Positions 19,878 to 31,470 of a stretch of DNA of 64,000 nt are shown here, piece after piece. Location of the stretch: the NCBI RefSeq assembly GCF_024502345.1, contig NZ_JALDNN010000001.1, one strand, 5' to 3'. The notes beneath the pieces are model-generated. The model worked only from the letters and a program-made list of their open reading frames with translations, was not told the origin of the DNA and ran no database searches. The position numbers were made by a program, and so were the translations under genes. Each line of letters begins with the position of its first letter. Within the stretch, counting starts at the first letter, position 1. The stretch comes from Escherichia coli (GTDB lineage Bacteria; Pseudomonadota; Gammaproteobacteria; Enterobacterales; Enterobacteriaceae).

Positions 19878-21692
19878 TCACTTCTTACATAGAATGCTGG
19901 GTTTTACTCCGTACTCAACACATGCACTCAAAAATGTATTTATAAGCCAGATTAGCTGAACAGTATAAGGTTTGGCTGACTGATTTCTCTTGATGATTTC
20001 CACCTCATCGATTAACATTTTTTTTCTTAAAAATGGAGCAGCTAATATTAACTCCCTACTAGTTTTCGGACTCTCATTAATTTTGTCAAGAGCTAACTCA
20101 ATGTCATTCCTGGAAGTGTCAATTGGTCTAATTCTACTAATCTGCGTTTGTAAATATTTTGAAGACCATTCATTATCATATTTATCAAGGTAAAGTTCTT
20201 TTGGTGAATGTAATCTGCCAATATTTTTTAAAGCTTGACTTATAACTTCATGAAATTTACTGGCGCCATAGCTCTCTTTTTTAATATATTTAGAATGAAT
20301 AAACTTTATGGATGGATTTCCTGTCGTGATATCCAGCACAATATGATCGGCCCACTCATCATTCATATCATCACAAATTACAATAGCATCTTTATTTGAA
20401 TAGATATTCTCCACTCGTCTAAATAGCGATCTCACTGGAAATCTTTTAATATTTTCTGGATAAGATTGTTTGTCATCTTTCTCTTTTTCCGATCTGATTG
20501 TTGAAAAATCAAAGCTATCATCAAAAACGGACAGGAAAATATTCAAATTATTTAACATCGTTTTATCTTCAAAACACGAACGACCATGATAGCAATATTG
20601 GGGGGAATCGAAGGTTATAGTGAATGGCTTAAACTTGTTAATATATTTACTAAGCGACATTAACTGAGAACCATTTTCACTAATCATTATACCATCGAGA
20701 TATTTGGATACTATAGTCACAACCTTAGTATTGAATCTCAGACGACATTTGAATTTGAATCTTAAATTGGTTAGCGTTTCACCATCTAAGAAATATGATG
20801 ATTTAAATCCATTGAAAAATTTGTCAAGTTCAACAGAACTTAACGTCACCGTTCCATGAGGCACATTTTTTGTTAGTGTAAAAGTATGGGACGTGCCACG
20901 CACCATATCATCCAACTCGCTAAGATCTATAAAAATAGCTTTTGGCTTGACTTTTTTTGCTAATAATTCACTCAAAGTAATAGGGGAAGAGAAACCTGCC
21001 ATTAGCTTACTTGACAAAGAGGCTGTGTTAGATAATTCATTTACTGTAGCTATTGCCCATGAGCAGAAATTAAAAAAATCCACTTTTTTATCTTTGTAGC
21101 CTATTCGTGAAGTATTTGGTGTTAAAGTAAATATGTCATTTCCTGTCTTGACTCTAAATGTCCCTGGAATTGAACGTCCAGTCGTGTTAGGAGAAAGAAT
21201 GCCACTTAGATTTTTTGCTTCCACTGTTCTATTTCTTATCACTGAATCTGACAGTGACATATTCCTCATGCTAATTTTTTCATACTCAGGATTCAGCCTT
21301 CCATTAAAATTTGAAAATTTATCAAACTCAAAGTATTCTATGAACCTTTCCAACTCGCTTTCAATTGCATCAACATTTTTCTTCGAAATTATTAAAAAAT
21401 CCTGAACCTCCAAGATCATTAGATACGCATACTTGCTTTCTGAAATGCTAGTGCCTTGTAGAAATGAAGGCTCTTCTAGAACTTTAAAAGACACCAAAGA
21501 GTAAGTTAAATTCCCATTATCTACAACAACTTCAGATTTAATTTTATTTATAAGAAAGACACCATCTTTTATCGAGGATATGCTTCTAAATAGATTTTTT
21601 ATTTTATTTCTAGATAAAGGTTTTTTTATCTTAAAAAATTGTGCATTTTTTGATAAAATTAAATCATTGATACTGAAAATATATTTAGTCAC
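19878..21692 (-). CDS. Orphan AT-rich protein of unknown function (604 aa), prophage hotspot cargo
   Basis: Long uninterrupted ORF in very AT-rich DNA; GTG start 8 nt after AAGGA; no Walker A, no YxDD box, no HNH seen by eye; C-terminal segment AIVICDDMNDEWADHIVLD...IKFIHSKY could be a nuclease-like acidic/basic cluster. Confidence 0.6.
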   Translation of the reverse strand: MTKYIFSINDLILSKNAQFFKIKKPLSRNKIKNLFRSISSIKDGVFLINKIKSEVVVDNGNLTYSLVSFKVLEEPSFLQGTSISESKYAYLMILEVQDFLIISKKNVDAIESELERFIEYFEFDKFSNFNGRLNPEYEKISMRNMSLSDSVIRNRTVEAKNLSGILSPNTTGRSIPGTFRVKTGNDIFTLTPNTSRIGYKDKKVDFFNFCSWAIATVNELSNTASLSSKLMAGFSSPITLSELLAKKVKPKAIFIDLSELDDMVRGTSHTFTLTKNVPHGTVTLSSVELDKFFNGFKSSYFLDGETLTNLRFKFKCRLRFNTKVVTIVSKYLDGIMISENGSQLMSLSKYINKFKPFTITFDSPQYCYHGRSCFEDKTMLNNLNIFLSVFDDSFDFSTIRSEKEKDDKQSYPENIKRFPVRSLFRRVENIYSNKDAIVICDDMNDEWADHIVLDITTGNPSIKFIHSKYIKKESYGASKFHEVISQALKNIGRLHSPKELYLDKYDNEWSSKYLQTQISRIRPIDTSRNDIELALDKINESPKTSRELILAAPFLRKKMLIDEVEIIKRNQSAKPYTVQLIWLINTFLSACVEYGVKPSILCKK

Positions 21693-26998: not shown

Positions 26999-27478
26999 AT
27001 GATGCTCGCGTTAGGTATGTTTGTTTTTATGCGCCAGACGCTGCCACACCAGGCCATGCAGCGTGAATCAGATTATCGCTGGCCGTCAAATTCCCGTATC
27101 GGTAAACGGGATGCCTTTCAGTTTCTCGGTGTGGGTGAGGAAAACATTACGCTTGCCGGTGTGCTTTATCCCGAACTGACAGGCGGAAAGCTGACGATGA
27201 CCACGCTCAGGATGATGGCAGAGGAAGGTCGGGCGTGGCCGTTGCTGGATGGCACCGGCATGATTTACGGCATGTATGTCATCAGCAGGGTGAGTGAAAC
27301 AGGGAGTATTTTCTTTGCAGACGGCACACCCCGGAAAATTGATTTTACGCTGTCGCTCACCCGCGTTGATGAATCACTGGCCGCGCTTTATGGCGATATC
27401 GGTAAACAGGCGGAATCGCTCATCGGTAAGGCTGGCAGTATGGCGACCAGATTCACGGGTATGACGGGGGCGGGATAA
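26999..27478 (+). CDS. U: P2 gpU tail protein (159 aa)
   Basis: 159 aa, size and position. Confidence 0.9.
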   Translation: MMLALGMFVFMRQTLPHQAMQRESDYRWPSNSRIGKRDAFQFLGVGEENITLAGVLYPELTGGKLTMTTLRMMAEEGRAWPLLDGTGMIYGMYVISRVSETGSIFFADGTPRKIDFTLSLTRVDESLAALYGDIGKQAESLIGKAGSMATRFTGMTGAG

Positions 27479-28641
27479 TGCTGGATGCGCTGACATTTGA
27501 TGCAGGCAGTACGCTGACGCCGGATTACATGCTGATGCTCGACAGCAGGGATATTACCGGCAATATCAGCGACCGTCTGATGAGCATGACCCTGACGGAT
27601 AACCGGGGCTTTGAGGCTGACCAGCTTGATATTGAACTGAACGATGCCGACGGGCAGGTCGGGCTGCCGGTTCGTGGCGCTGTCCTGACGGTGTATATCG
27701 GCTGGAAAGGTTTTGCCCTGGTATGCAAAGGGAAATTTACCGTTGATGAGGTTGAACACCGGGGCGCACCGGATGTGGTCACCATCCGTGCCCGGAGTGC
27801 AGATTTTCGTGGGACGCTCAATTCCCGCCGGGAAGGCTCCTGGCATGACACCACGCTCGGTGCGATTGTTGAGGCGATAGCCTCCCGTAACAGGCTGGAA
27901 GCCAGTGTCGCTCCGTCACTGGCCGGAATTAAAATCCCGCACATCGACCAGTCGCAGGAGTCTGATGTGAAATTCCTGACCCGTCTTGCTGAACGCAACG
28001 GCGGCGAGGTGTCGGTAAAAATGGGAAAACTGCTGTTTCTCAAAGCAGGGCAGGGGGTGACGGCCAGCGGTAAAAAAATCCCGCAGATTACCATCACCCG
28101 CAGCGACGGCGACCGTCATCATTTTGCGATTGCTGACCGTGGAGCTTACACCGGCGTAACGGCAAAGTGGTTACACACCAAAGACCCGAAGCCGCAAAAG
28201 CAGAAGGTAAAACTGAAACGCAAAAAGAAAGAAAAACACCTGCGCGCACTGGAGCACCCGAAAGCGAAACCGGTCACGCAGAAGAAAGCGCCAAAAGTAC
28301 CGGAAGCGCGCGAAGGTGAATACATGGCCGGTGAAGCTGACAACGTTTTTGCCCTGACTACGGTATATGCCACAAAAGCGCAGGCCATGCGCGCCGCTCA
28401 GGCAAAGTGGGACAAACTGCAACGGGGCGTCGCGGAGTTCTCCATCAGCCTGGCTACCGGTCGGGCAGATATTTACACGGAAACACCGGTTAAAGTGTCA
28501 GGCTTTAAGCGCGTCATAGACGAGCAGGACTGGACAATCACTAAGGTGACACATTTTCTGAATAATAGCGGCTTCACGACGTCCTTAGAGCTTGAGGTCA
28601 GGCTTTCTGATGTGGAGTACGAAACAGAAGATGATGAGTGA
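27478..28641 (+). CDS. D: P2 gpD tail protein (387 aa)
   Basis: 387 aa, size and position. Confidence 0.9.
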   Translation: MLDALTFDAGSTLTPDYMLMLDSRDITGNISDRLMSMTLTDNRGFEADQLDIELNDADGQVGLPVRGAVLTVYIGWKGFALVCKGKFTVDEVEHRGAPDVVTIRARSADFRGTLNSRREGSWHDTTLGAIVEAIASRNRLEASVAPSLAGIKIPHIDQSQESDVKFLTRLAERNGGEVSVKMGKLLFLKAGQGVTASGKKIPQITITRSDGDRHHFAIADRGAYTGVTAKWLHTKDPKPQKQKVKLKRKKKEKHLRALEHPKAKPVTQKKAPKVPEAREGEYMAGEADNVFALTTVYATKAQAMRAAQAKWDKLQRGVAEFSISLATGRADIYTETPVKVSGFKRVIDEQDWTITKVTHFLNNSGFTTSLELEVRLSDVEYETEDDE

Positions 28642-28722
28642 TGTTTATTATTTATCTGTTTGTTTTATAAGGATAAATTAACTAAAATGGCACCATCAAC
28701 AAAACCGGAAGAGGTGCTCGCG

Positions 28723-28941
28723 ATGTTTCATTGTCCTTTATGCCAGCATGCCGCACATGCGCGTACAAGTCGCTATATCACTGACACGACAAAAGAGCGT
28801 TATCACCAGTGCCAGAACGTGAATTGCAGCGCCACGTTCATCACTTATGAGTCGGTACAGCGATACATCGTTAAGCCGGGAGAAGTCCACGCCGTAAGGC
28901 CGCACCCGTTGCCGTCAGGGCAGCAAATTATGTGGATGTAA
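28723..28941 (+). CDS. ogr: P2 Ogr late-gene transcriptional activator, zinc-finger (72 aa)
   Basis: MFHCPLCQHAAHARTSRYITDTTKERYHQCQNVNCSATF has the Cys4 arrangement; last gene before att. Confidence 0.9.
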   Translation: MFHCPLCQHAAHARTSRYITDTTKERYHQCQNVNCSATFITYESVQRYIVKPGEVHAVRPHPLPSGQQIMWM

Positions 28942-29042: not shown

Positions 29043-29069
29043 AAAAAATAAGCCCGTGTAAGGGAGATT
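29043..29069. other. attR: Probable P2 attachment core (prophage/host junction) overlapping the cyaR 3' end
   Basis: AAAAAATAAGCCCGTGTAAGGGAGATT matches the 27-nt P2 att core as recalled; lies exactly where phage sequence gives way to host backbone. Confidence 0.5.
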
Positions 29070-29129
29070 ACACAGGCTAAGGAGGTGGTTCCTGGTACAG
29101 CTAGCATTTTATGGGTTATGTTTTTCAGC
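29043..29129 (-). ncRNA. cyaR: CyaR (RyeE) Hfq-dependent sRNA
   Basis: Minus strand reads GCTGAAAAACATAACCCATAAAATGCTAGCTGTACCAGGAACCACCTCCTTAGCC...terminator hairpin and U-run; sits between yegQ and the ogr end as in K-12. Confidence 0.8.
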
Positions 29130-29213
29130 GAAACGGATGATAACCTTAATAAATGCAGCTGTATGTGATCGGTTTCTAAGAATTTTCCATCCGGGAAAAA
29201 TAATCGAAATTAA

Positions 29214-30575
29214 TCACTTACCGTGTGGGTTACGCGTGGTTTCCCCGGAGAAATTACGCATCAGCAGCGCGTAATTTAGCTCAAGATCCTGCGGCACCGG
29301 GAGCCACACAGTATAACCATCGCCTGGTGCTACCGGCATAGCTTCGCCTTTGGCGTTTTCCATGTGCTCAAGGGTAAAGTTAATGTTGCCTTGCGGCGTC
29401 ATCAGCTCAAGGCTGTCGCCAACGGAGAATTTATTTTTCACTGCTACCGCCGCGAGGTCCCCCTTGCGCTCACCGGTAAACTCACCAACAAACTGCTGGC
29501 GGTCAGAAACCGAATAACCGTATTCGTAGTTCTGATAATCGTCGTGAGTATGACGACGCAGGAAACCTTCGGTATAGCCACGATGCGCCAGACCTTCCAG
29601 AGTTTCCAGCAGGCTGGTATCGAACGGTTTGCCCGCAGCGGCATCATCGATAGCTTTACGATAAACCTGTGCGGTGCGTGCGCAATAGTAGAAAGATTTA
29701 GTACGGCCTTCGATCTTCAGCGAATGCACGCCCATTTTGGTCAGGCGCTCAACGTGGGCGATGGCACGCAGATCTTTCGAGTTCATAATGTAAGTGCCGT
29801 GTTCGTCTTCAAACGCGGTCATATACTCGCCCGGACGCTGGGCCTCTTCGATCATAAACACTTTGTCGGTTGGCGCGCCAATACCAAGCGTCGGCTCAAC
29901 GTTTTGCACCGGAATCGGCTCGTACTTGTGTACGATGTTGCCGACGTCATCTTCTTTACCTTCCTGTACGTTGTACTCCCAGCGGCAGGCATTGGTGCAG
30001 GTTCCCTGGTTCGGGTCGCGTTTGTTAATGTAGCCCGAGAGCAGGCAGCGGCCGGAGTAGGCCATGCACAGTGCGCCGTGAACGAAGATCTCGATCTCCA
30101 TATCCGGCACCTGATTGCGGATCTCTTCAATCTCTTCCAGCGACAGCTCGCGAGAGAGGATCACGCGGGTCAGGCCCATTTGCTGCCAGAATTTCACCGT
30201 CGCCCAGTTTACGGCGTTAGCCTGCACCGAGAGGTGGATCGGCATTTCAGGGAAGTGCTCACGCACCAGCATAATCAGCCCTGGATCGGACATAATCAGC
30301 GCATCCGGCCCCATTTCCACCACCGGTTTCAGGTCACGGATAAAGGTTTTCAGCTTGGCGTTGTGCGGGGCAATGTTGACCACGACATAAAACTTTTTCC
30401 CCAGCGCGTGGGCTTCATTGATGCCGAGCTGAAGATTTTCGTGGTTGAATTCGTTGTTGCGCACACGCAGGGAGTAACGCGGCTGGCCCGCATAAACAGC
30501 ATCTGCGCCATAAGCGAAAGCGTAACGCATATTTTTCAGCGTTCCCGCCGGGGAAAGGAGTTCCGGTTTAAACAT
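29214..30575 (-). CDS. yegQ: U32-family peptidase-like protein YegQ (453 aa)
   Basis: 453 aa; MFKPELLSPAGTLKNMRYAFAYGADAVYAG N-terminus typical of U32 family. Confidence 0.9.
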   Translation of the reverse strand: MFKPELLSPAGTLKNMRYAFAYGADAVYAGQPRYSLRVRNNEFNHENLQLGINEAHALGKKFYVVVNIAPHNAKLKTFIRDLKPVVEMGPDALIMSDPGLIMLVREHFPEMPIHLSVQANAVNWATVKFWQQMGLTRVILSRELSLEEIEEIRNQVPDMEIEIFVHGALCMAYSGRCLLSGYINKRDPNQGTCTNACRWEYNVQEGKEDDVGNIVHKYEPIPVQNVEPTLGIGAPTDKVFMIEEAQRPGEYMTAFEDEHGTYIMNSKDLRAIAHVERLTKMGVHSLKIEGRTKSFYYCARTAQVYRKAIDDAAAGKPFDTSLLETLEGLAHRGYTEGFLRRHTHDDYQNYEYGYSVSDRQQFVGEFTGERKGDLAAVAVKNKFSVGDSLELMTPQGNINFTLEHMENAKGEAMPVAPGDGYTVWLPVPQDLELNYALLMRNFSGETTRNPHGK

Positions 30576-30677
30576 AATTCTCTCGTTCTGATGACAGGTC
30601 AGATCCGCTTCACCTGATGAAGCGGTTAGGGGAGTGCCCCCACTTTAAGGGCGGGCATTGTAGCGCAATCGGCGGGT

Positions 30678-30974
30678 TTAGCTCCAGTGTAAATGTCTGG
30701 TGGCGTCCTGGTTTTGGTTAAGGATACGAATGACGATAATTTCCCCTGGTGATTGCAGGAAATAAATTACGTGGCGTTCAAAAGGAAGAACAAAAATACC
30801 TTCGCCTAATTCAGGTCTGGGCGTACCTATATTATTGTTACTCAGAATCTGGAGAACGTCTGAAAGATGTTCCACATATCTGTCGGCTTGTGGTTCGCCG
30901 AAATGGTGATAACTGTAATACCAGATGCCTTCTAAATCCTCATTGGCTTTTGGCATGAGTTTAATAATACGCAC
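30678..30974 (-). CDS. ParE/RelE-family type II toxin (98 aa)
   Basis: About 100 aa, directly downstream of and 1 nt separated from a small RHH antitoxin-like gene; ParE-like sequence character. Confidence 0.6.
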   Translation of the reverse strand: MRIIKLMPKANEDLEGIWYYSYHHFGEPQADRYVEHLSDVLQILSNNNIGTPRPELGEGIFVLPFERHVIYFLQSPGEIIVIRILNQNQDATRHLHWS

Positions 30975-30975
30975 A

Positions 30976-31227
30976 TTATTTCCTTATCCCTGCTTTCACC
31001 TTCCGTAAAAACGCGTCCTTTTCCCACGGCTGAGCTTCACCACTACTCAACCCTTCTGCAAGCATGCCACGTAACGCTTGCAGGCGAGACTCTGCTTGCT
31101 TTTCTCGAAGTAAGCGCAGTGACTCACGGATCACTTCGCTTTGGGTGCGATAGTCGCCGGATTCAATTAAGGACTCGATAAATTCACGCAACTCATCGCC
31201 GAGATCAACCGTCATCGTTCTGGCCAT
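30976..31227 (-). CDS. ParD-like ribbon-helix-helix antitoxin (83 aa)
   Basis: 83 aa, N-terminal RHH-like segment, acidic C-terminal half; precedes the toxin. Confidence 0.6.
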   Translation of the reverse strand: MARTMTVDLGDELREFIESLIESGDYRTQSEVIRESLRLLREKQAESRLQALRGMLAEGLSSGEAQPWEKDAFLRKVKAGIRK

Positions 31228-31470
31228 GTTTATGCTCTCCTGTAAGTAAAAATCTTACATCAGTGTATGTCATAAACCGGATAGCGTCACGAAAAGTATT
31301 AGAAGATATTTTGGCAGATGAACATGTTCAGGAGGATAAGCATGGAGATGTTAAACAAAGAAAGCACAATGAGTATTCATCAGTGTCCACTATTTTAATG
31401 GCGCAGGTAAATAATTAAGCGTTATTTGGAAATAAAGCCGGACGCCAACAACCCACGCCCGGCATCGTAA

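Follow-up and report, generated by a model that had tools for sequence, protein, structure and literature searches.

A chromosomal ParD/ParE-family toxin-antitoxin gene pair between yegP and trhP (yegQ) in Escherichia coli

Two small minus-strand genes, parD and parE, lie between yegP and yegQ (the latter now named trhP) in a 64,000-nucleotide (nt) stretch of Escherichia coli DNA (NCBI RefSeq assembly GCF_024502345.1, contig NZ_JALDNN010000001.1; hereafter the window, from whose first base all positions are counted). The pair is a genuine but ordinary, textbook-type ParDE toxin-antitoxin (TA) module; its kind is known, and the pair itself is already catalogued in RefSeq, in ~1,800 complete E. 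coli genomes, under the names "ParD family antitoxin" and "RelE/ParE family toxin" (toxin WP_001220181.1). The initial annotation of this DNA had described a ribbon-helix-helix-like antitoxin gene followed at 1 nt by a ParE/RelE-like toxin gene, and this description holds. The open reading frames (ORFs) run on the same strand with the antitoxin gene first and a single base (30975) between the parD stop codon and the parE start codon (Table 1), and both products score above the cut-offs of their families and match the expected classes, including the ParE fold.

The gene pair and its upstream region

ParD scores 67.8 bits against PF03693 (ParD_antitoxin; cut-off 21, expectation value (E) 1.1e-18) and 86.2 bits against TIGR02606 (cut-off 46.2, E 1.1e-24), and residues 6-42 give a match to RHH_1 that falls below threshold. 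Its nearest relative of solved structure is PrpA from Pseudoalteromonas rubra (PDB 7YCS, ~58% identity over 77 amino acids (aa), E 4e-27), with whose toxin-binding region the C-terminal half of ParD aligns; VcParD2, CcParD1 and MtParD1 come next (E 6e-12 to 4e-10). From these matches ParD is predicted to consist of a DNA-binding N-terminal domain of the ribbon-helix-helix type plus a toxin-binding C-terminal tail. The window allele differs from every other allele compared in carrying Gly54 instead of Asp (D54G, window 31067; the aligned PrpA residue is Gln), and an exact match to the window coding region was found in 0 genomes of the collection, the best reaching 99.8%.

The RefSeq annotation pipeline (PGAP) flags ParD as a "frameshifted" pseudogene in both window-type genomes inspected (XH990 and 266917_2), which if taken literally would give the false impression of an orphan toxin. 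The reference ParD (WP_001307279.1) is 98 aa long and starts 45 nt further upstream (window 31228-31272), and the window allele has one extra base in this stretch. Several observations argue that the 83-aa ParD is the real protein. The PF03693 and TIGR02606 profiles begin at residue 1-4 of the 83-aa ORF, the ParD homologues of E. whittamii, Pseudocitrobacter and all plasmids begin at the same MARTM..., and an ORF of identical 83-aa length is present in E. whittamii and Pseudocitrobacter. In addition, translation of the extra part of the 98-aa form would have to run through the putative promoter and operator described below, and the window allele carries the better Shine-Dalgarno sequence (AGGAG at 31241-31237, 9 nt 5′ of the ATG). 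The "frameshifted ParD" call is therefore very likely an annotation artefact that arises from an over-extended reference start.

ParE matches PF05016 (ParE_toxin) over residues 4-90 of its 98 (51.3 bits, cut-off 23, E 1.8e-13), and its GTG start codon, which is preceded at 7 nt by the ribosome-binding sequence AAGGA, is kept in homologues. Both PF05016 and the RefSeq name "RelE/ParE family" span two branches of one superfamily, ParE-type toxins and RelE-type mRNA endonucleases. The best sequence match among solved structures is PrpT (E 2.3e-12, 32% identity), followed by MtParE1, CcParE1 (E 2e-7) and VcParE2 (E 6e-8 to 7e-7 across the three, identity 26-31%). All solved-structure sequence matches at E <0.01 are ParE-class toxins, and up to E 1 this search gave no RelE-class chain. 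ParE was also modelled with AlphaFold2 from 14 homologues (predicted local distance difference test score, pLDDT, 88.8); the model has strands at residues 3-6, 60-65, 68-74 and 78-86 and helices at residues 8-25 and 27-46, so that the N-terminal strand is followed by a long alpha-hairpin and then by a three-stranded antiparallel sheet. When this model was compared with the PDB using Foldseek, the top 23 matches were all ParE-family toxins, and the best four distinct structures were PrpT, VcParE2, MtParE1 and CcParE1 with template modelling (TM) scores of 0.83-0.87 and root mean square deviations of 1.2-1.7 Å. RelE, YoeB and YafQ ranked below these 23, at E ~1e-3 or worse and TM ≤0.67. With the top sequence and structure matches all being ParE toxins and the RelE-type RNases matching far more weakly, the modelled toxin is assigned to the ParE class and not to the RelE class.

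Upstream of parD, the putative -10 box and the Shine-Dalgarno sequence enclose the palindrome GTAAG-N7-CTTAC. It occurs once in the 64-kb window, which is close to the chance expectation, so the count alone carries no weight. Its conservation is more informative: all E. coli alleles, E. whittamii and the plasmid homologues of Klebsiella, Pantoea and Citrobacter keep GTAAGA...CTTAC unchanged, in leaders that are otherwise unalignable. PrpA represses its own promoter via a TTTG(T/A)AAT motif (PMC7848731; PMC9731233), and this motif and the palindrome have TGTAA in common. On the strength of this conservation and the shared TGTAA we propose that the palindrome is likely the ParD operator, to which ParD would bind. 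Our placement of a putative parDE promoter relies on alignment with a plasmid homologue from Klebsiella, where 3 nt separate a perfect TATAAT from the palindrome downstream of it; in the window, TACACT aligns with this hexamer at the same distance. The remainder of the 243-nt parD leader probably holds no third gene, as its sole extra ORF (51 aa, on the opposite strand) is frameshifted or truncated in other alleles.

Downstream of parE, a terminator scan called no terminator-like site before trhP, and read-through from parDE into trhP is possible; the cassette might in this way reshape transcription of this tRNA-hydroxylase gene. The E. coli alleles compared show no difference in the trhP leader (100% identity, versus 96-98% for the yegQ coding sequence), which is also largely conserved in Pseudocitrobacter, where the hairpin CCGCTTCA...TGAAGCGG is kept with changes. 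Its predicted fold is not significant (z = -1.15), and Rfam searches of the parDE and trhP leaders returned no significant RNA, the small RNA CyaR being the sole significant match in or near the cassette.

Distribution of the cassette among Escherichia coli and its relatives

As the initial annotation had suspected, the pair is absent from K-12 at this position: the yegP-yegQ spacer of K-12 BW25113 is only 146 bp long and has no TA genes. Alignments place the difference between parDE carriers and K-12 in a 771-bp cassette, in place of which K-12 has 22 unrelated bases. The cassette has a GC content of 0.40-0.48 versus 0.52-0.57 in its flanks, and no direct or inverted repeats were seen at its ends, i.e. 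it bears no mobile-element signature. Its upstream edge falls in the terminator-like hairpin of yegP, which is common to K-12, with the T-tract lying within the variable part. We considered whether the 22-nt filler of K-12 is a relic of the parE 3′ end, but local and end-anchored alignments were not significant against shuffles; its similarity to the parE remnant of Escherichia sp. E1V33 (see below) is marginal only (23/500 and 109/2000 shuffles), and we do not claim derivation from parE.

The same annotation had taken the pair for a possible strain-specific insertion, and this does not agree with its distribution. By megablast, the full yegP-yegQ interval is present in 1843 of 5426 complete E. 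coli genomes (34%). The 550-bp coding region is found in the same 1843 genomes, each with exactly one chromosomal copy at this exact site, all at ≥95% identity, and 137 of them are ≥99% identical to the window allele. The carriers are diverse in host, serotype and species and do not form one recent clone, and parE is intact in nearly all of those sampled. Presence in K-12 and in most E. coli would have made the pair ordinary core backbone; it is found in neither, and is an accessory element, but a common and already annotated one.

The site is also occupied outside E. coli. E. whittamii has an intact pair between yegP and yegQ, with nucleotide identities to the window of 96.0% for parD and 95.6% for parE, compared to 94.1% for yegQ, 90.2% for baeR and 85.3% for yegP. 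The ratios of nonsynonymous to synonymous substitution rates (dN/dS) in this comparison are 0.07 for parD and 0.11 for parE, and the non-coding leader is only 82% identical, which together indicate that both genes are under purifying selection. In Pseudocitrobacter the contig order is mdtD-baeS-baeR-parD(83 aa)-parE(98 aa)-trhP-yegS, without yegP; the contig was attributed to this genus as both its BaeR and its TrhP exactly match proteins named for Pseudocitrobacter. Protein identities here are 90% for ParD and 79% for ParE, in the range seen for core proteins on either side (YegQ 93%, BaeR 91% and BaeS 82%). The scan of genome contigs used exact peptide words and missed Pseudocitrobacter, so that absence from other genera cannot be concluded from it.

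Remnants at the same site point to loss. Escherichia sp. E1V33 has a decayed copy comprising parE codons 56-98 with an indel and without the stop codon, and in 298 E. coli genomes the final 19 nt of parE (window 30678-30696) persist beside a replacement island with PcfJ/DUF1266/DUF4034 genes (for example E. coli A0 34/86, L003 3001-6121). Known B2 strains (ATCC 11775, UM146 and Nissle 1917) are among those with the 19-nt relic. The yegP-trhP spacer is thus a multi-state hotspot with at least three states: empty, parDE and PcfJ island. The same-site copies in relatives together with these remnants indicate that the pair is old and has been repeatedly lost, and the simplest reading is that of an old chromosomal cassette upstream of trhP that was lost or replaced several times, including in the K-12 lineage. 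As an ancient, repeatedly lost accessory element it is no marker of recent insertion or of the prophage, and the value of the present analysis lies in setting right two points, the interpretation as a "strain-specific insertion" and the calling of ParD as a pseudogene.

The proposed link to an adjacent prophage integration site fares no better. The left half of the window (1-28941) is a P2-like prophage whose right end lies ~1.7 kb from the pair, with yegQ and cyaR between them. Pair and prophage occur independently: XH990 and 266917_2 have parDE and lack the P2-like prophage, and Z142-7 has the prophage and lacks parDE. A phage origin of the pair was likewise rejected, as 50,697 phage records yielded one weak, partial match of 71.5% identity and the PHROG matches are to generic TA or unknown families.

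Table 1. Positions of the parDE genes, their putative control elements and neighbouring features in the 64-kb window
Feature	Position	Strand	Details
parD	31227..30976	-	ATG start; 83 aa; TAA stop 30978-30976
parE	30974..30678	-	GTG start 30974-30972; 98 aa
Putative ParD operator	31242..31258	-	Palindrome GTAAG-ATTTTTA-CTTAC; the parD ATG follows 14 nt downstream
Putative parDE promoter	31262..31290	-	-35 GTGACG (31290-31285), 17-nt spacer, -10 TACACT (31267-31262); read from sequence
parDE cassette	30667..31437	-	771 bp; segment separating parDE carriers from K-12; from alignments
trhP leader	30576..30677	-	102 nt; directly 3′ of parE
trhP (yegQ)	30575..29214	-	NCBIfam NF011996 TrhP, 876 bits
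yegP terminator-like hairpin	31428..31463	-	GCCGGGCG...CGTCCGGC + T-tract; upstream edge of the cassette; terminator scan and sequence
51-aa ORF	31263..31418	+	In the 243-nt parD leader, opposite strand; probably no gene
CyaR/RyeE small RNA	29046-29131	-	Rfam RF00112, 100.7 bits; between prophage end and yegQ
ogr	28660-28941		Prophage right end
gpD	27478-28641		Full length, 387 aa; prophage right end

Plasmid relatives and characterised systems

Homologues of parDE at 60-80% nucleotide identity are carried by 881 Enterobacterales plasmids, most of them conjugative. In these the ParD is 88 aa long and its gene overlaps parE by 14 nt, versus the 1-nt gap in the window. Examples come from Klebsiella (pINF078-VP), Citrobacter (TSA-1 plasmid) and Salmonella contigs. 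The plasmid copies recur in the layout parDE, tyrosine recombinase, Rep3/RepFIB initiator. The Citrobacter plasmid carries two tandem parDE copies, and the copy on the pAA plasmid of E. coli O104:H4 is decayed. Plasmid ParD is 87-90% identical to the chromosomal protein and plasmid ParE only 61-69% (65-67% where dN is 0.06 for ParD versus 0.24 for ParE), an unusual asymmetry in which the antitoxin of the sister clade is far more alike than the toxin. A sensitive search of E. coli found 2138 genomes with any copy, at 1852 chromosomal and 545 plasmid places. Rough arithmetic on these totals, made with no phylogenetic correction, puts chromosomal and plasmid homologues together in ~240-260 genomes, which indicates that the two do not exclude each other. 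Elsewhere, a Yersinia mollaretii contig (L018 3248-3791) has a parDE homologue in a prophage, adjoining holin and lysozyme genes and with a toxin 61% identical to that of the window, and Pluralibacter gergoviae has a copy elsewhere in its genome with a frameshifted toxin gene.

Of the characterised systems, PrpTA of the P. rubra megaplasmid pMBL6842 (PDB 7YCS; PMC7848731, PMC9731233) comes closest to both proteins in sequence as well as in structure (TM 0.87 for PrpT); that 7YCS is PrpT/PrpA was checked against two papers. It has the same pairing of PF03693 with PF05016 and the same antitoxin-first order, and its ribbon-helix-helix antitoxin represses its own promoter. PrpTA differs in being plasmid-borne, with PrpA also binding the iterons of the origin and thereby limiting copy number, whereas the locus described here is chromosomal and has no replicon nearby; it is the plasmid homologues that lie beside Rep3/RepFIB. 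M. tuberculosis ParDE1 (8C24), Caulobacter ParDE1 (3KXE) and Vibrio cholerae ParDE2 (7R5A) belong to the same families (ParE TM 0.83-0.84), at a toxin identity of 26-31% and with a conserved Trp (Trp25 in VcParE2) where the toxin here has Phe. The nearest mobile relatives, the IncF-plasmid parDE modules of Enterobacteriaceae, share with the window pair both the putative operator palindrome and the GTG start codon of the toxin gene, and are set apart by their 88-aa ParD, their 14-nt gene overlap and their linkage to a tyrosine recombinase and Rep3/RepFIB.

More distant comparisons are with RK2 ParDE, the founding plasmid addiction system, and PaaR2-PaaA2-ParE2 of E. coli O157:H7 prophages. RK2 ParDE likewise pairs a ParE-family toxin, reported to be a gyrase inhibitor, with a ribbon-helix-helix antitoxin, and follows a logic of post-segregational killing (cited in PMC7167474). 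However, the RK2 antitoxin is placed in PF09386 (PMC7848731), and no RK2 chain is among the solved-structure matches obtained here. The ParE2 toxin (5CW7/5CZF) has the ParE fold (TM 0.75-0.76) at 16-17% identity, but it belongs to a three-gene, prophage-borne system with a separate regulator and an unrelated antitoxin, whereas the locus here has two genes only and a PF03693 antitoxin. ParDE-I (YacA/YacB) of IncI/IncF resistance plasmids has been called ParDE-family, with reported heat and antibiotic tolerance and a predicted gyrase target (PMC6614396). We rejected it as a plasmid relative of the pair as it falls in a different branch; its toxin is ~15% identical to CcParE1 (PMC6614396), versus the E of 2e-7 with CcParE1 here. 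As for reviews, one from 2025 lists E. coli ParDE only among plasmid loci, and one from 2020 lists TAfinder-predicted, unvalidated TA systems for the B1 strain E. coli W (PMC7167474).

Proposed mechanism and alternatives

We favour, with a probability of roughly 0.8, the reading that the pair is a functional, autorepressed ParD/ParE module in which ParD binds the palindrome and neutralises ParE, and ParE, once freed, poisons gyrase. The gene structure, family and fold membership, synteny, purifying selection and conserved palindrome are established at this locus. In the proposed sequence of events a weak sigma-70 promoter would drive parD and then parE, and the position of the parE GTG 1 nt past the parD stop codon would couple translation of the two genes and keep the toxin below the antitoxin. 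ParD, dimerised by way of its N-terminal ribbon-helix-helix domain, would bind GTAAG-N7-CTTAC, which has the -10 box on one side and the ribosome-binding site on the other, thereby repressing the operon, while the C-terminal tail of ParD would wrap around ParE and neutralise it. Upon loss of ParD to proteolysis, free ParE would be expected to poison DNA gyrase, leading to DNA damage, SOS induction and growth arrest. DNA binding, neutralisation of ParE, the lability of ParD and the gyrase target are attributed to the pair here by analogy with characterised relatives.

The gyrase step is carried over from MtParE1, CcParE1 and VcParE2, which two sources place in a ParE group with reported inhibition or poisoning of DNA gyrase (bioRxiv 10.1101/2025.07.24.666505; PMC10899793). 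PrpT, the closest characterised relative, has no demonstrated gyrase target, and the word "gyrase" is absent from both PrpTA papers (PMC7848731, PMC9731233). The residue aligned with Trp25 of VcParE2 is Phe in the toxin described here; Trp25 is conserved in MtParE1 and CcParE1, is reported to be key to the gyrase interaction, and the exchange W25F lowers VcParE2 toxicity (bioRxiv 10.1101/2025.07.24.666505). Both the case of PrpT and the Phe weaken the transfer of this step. Furthermore, some chromosomal ParE toxins, such as PaParE1, are reported to be non-toxic (bioRxiv 10.1101/2025.07.24.666505). At the locus itself, a scan with the consensus promoter called no minus-strand promoter upstream of parD, some strains are frameshifted in both genes (e.g. 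HH97, flagged), and literature searches, including those with the gene neighbours and the RefSeq protein accessions, found no experimental work on the locus.

If the toxin is weak or serves only as a partner, the pair could instead be kept mainly for ParD acting in trans on the closely related IncF parDE modules, by repressing their operator, by neutralising their ParE and so countering addiction, or by a control of replication like that exerted by PrpA. Such a role would fit the far closer resemblance of plasmid ParD than of plasmid ParE to the chromosomal proteins, the palindrome that also precedes the plasmid copies, the recurrent position of these copies beside a recombinase and a Rep3/RepFIB initiator, the setting of plasmid copy number by PrpA through iteron binding (PMC7848731), and the genomes in which both homologues coexist. 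However, parE is itself under purifying selection and intact in nearly all sampled carriers, the co-occurrence figure is uncorrected for phylogeny, and the locus is also present in Pseudocitrobacter and E. whittamii, for which there is no plasmid information. We consider this explanation unlikely, and its specific form, in which chromosomal ParD is kept for action on the RepFIB-adjacent IncF modules, somewhat more doubtful still. If it were true, the old polymorphism for having or lacking the pair between yegP and trhP would adjust plasmid addiction or copy number in roughly one third of E. coli. Irrespective of this, the candidate operator and the close plasmid sister clade lead to simple testable hypotheses on TA cross-talk between chromosome and plasmids.

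A second alternative is that the selected role of the pair is phage defence by abortive infection, with ParE set free once a phage halts the expression of host genes. TA modules can act in this way (PMC7167474), and the Yersinia mollaretii homologue, adjoining lysis genes, occupies a typical moron position. Yet neither ParD nor ParE has a PADLOC-DB 2.0 match at E 0.01 or better, and the neighbours of the pair are core housekeeping genes with no defence-island context, which makes a defence role improbable. Smaller again is the chance that the toxin acts as a ribosome-dependent mRNA endonuclease of the RelE type. The shared family names and the weaker Foldseek matches to RelE, YoeB and YafQ would allow for it, but the class assignment given above speaks against it, as does the antitoxin partner, which is a ParD (PF03693) and not RelB, DinJ or YefM. 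Finally, a recent insertion brought by or because of the adjacent P2-like prophage, which the absence from K-12, the low GC content of the cassette and the nearby prophage end might suggest, is already refuted by the distribution data: a third of complete genomes carrying the pair at one site, copies in E. whittamii and Pseudocitrobacter diverged like the flanking core genes, the remnants in E1V33 and 298 further genomes, and the independent occurrence of pair and prophage, with a single partial phage match.

On the side of the pair opposite trhP lie yegP (DUF1508) and then baeR and baeS. At the right end of the prophage, where the window has gpD and ogr, K-12 keeps only the ogrK/yegZ remnants. 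A 604-aa gene of the prophage (19878-21692, minus strand) has tail-fibre genes on one side and the sheath gene FI on the other. It has no Pfam domain but gives a match at 1e-218 to PDC-S71, a candidate defence family of PADLOC; we read its site as the P2 accessory-gene hotspot.

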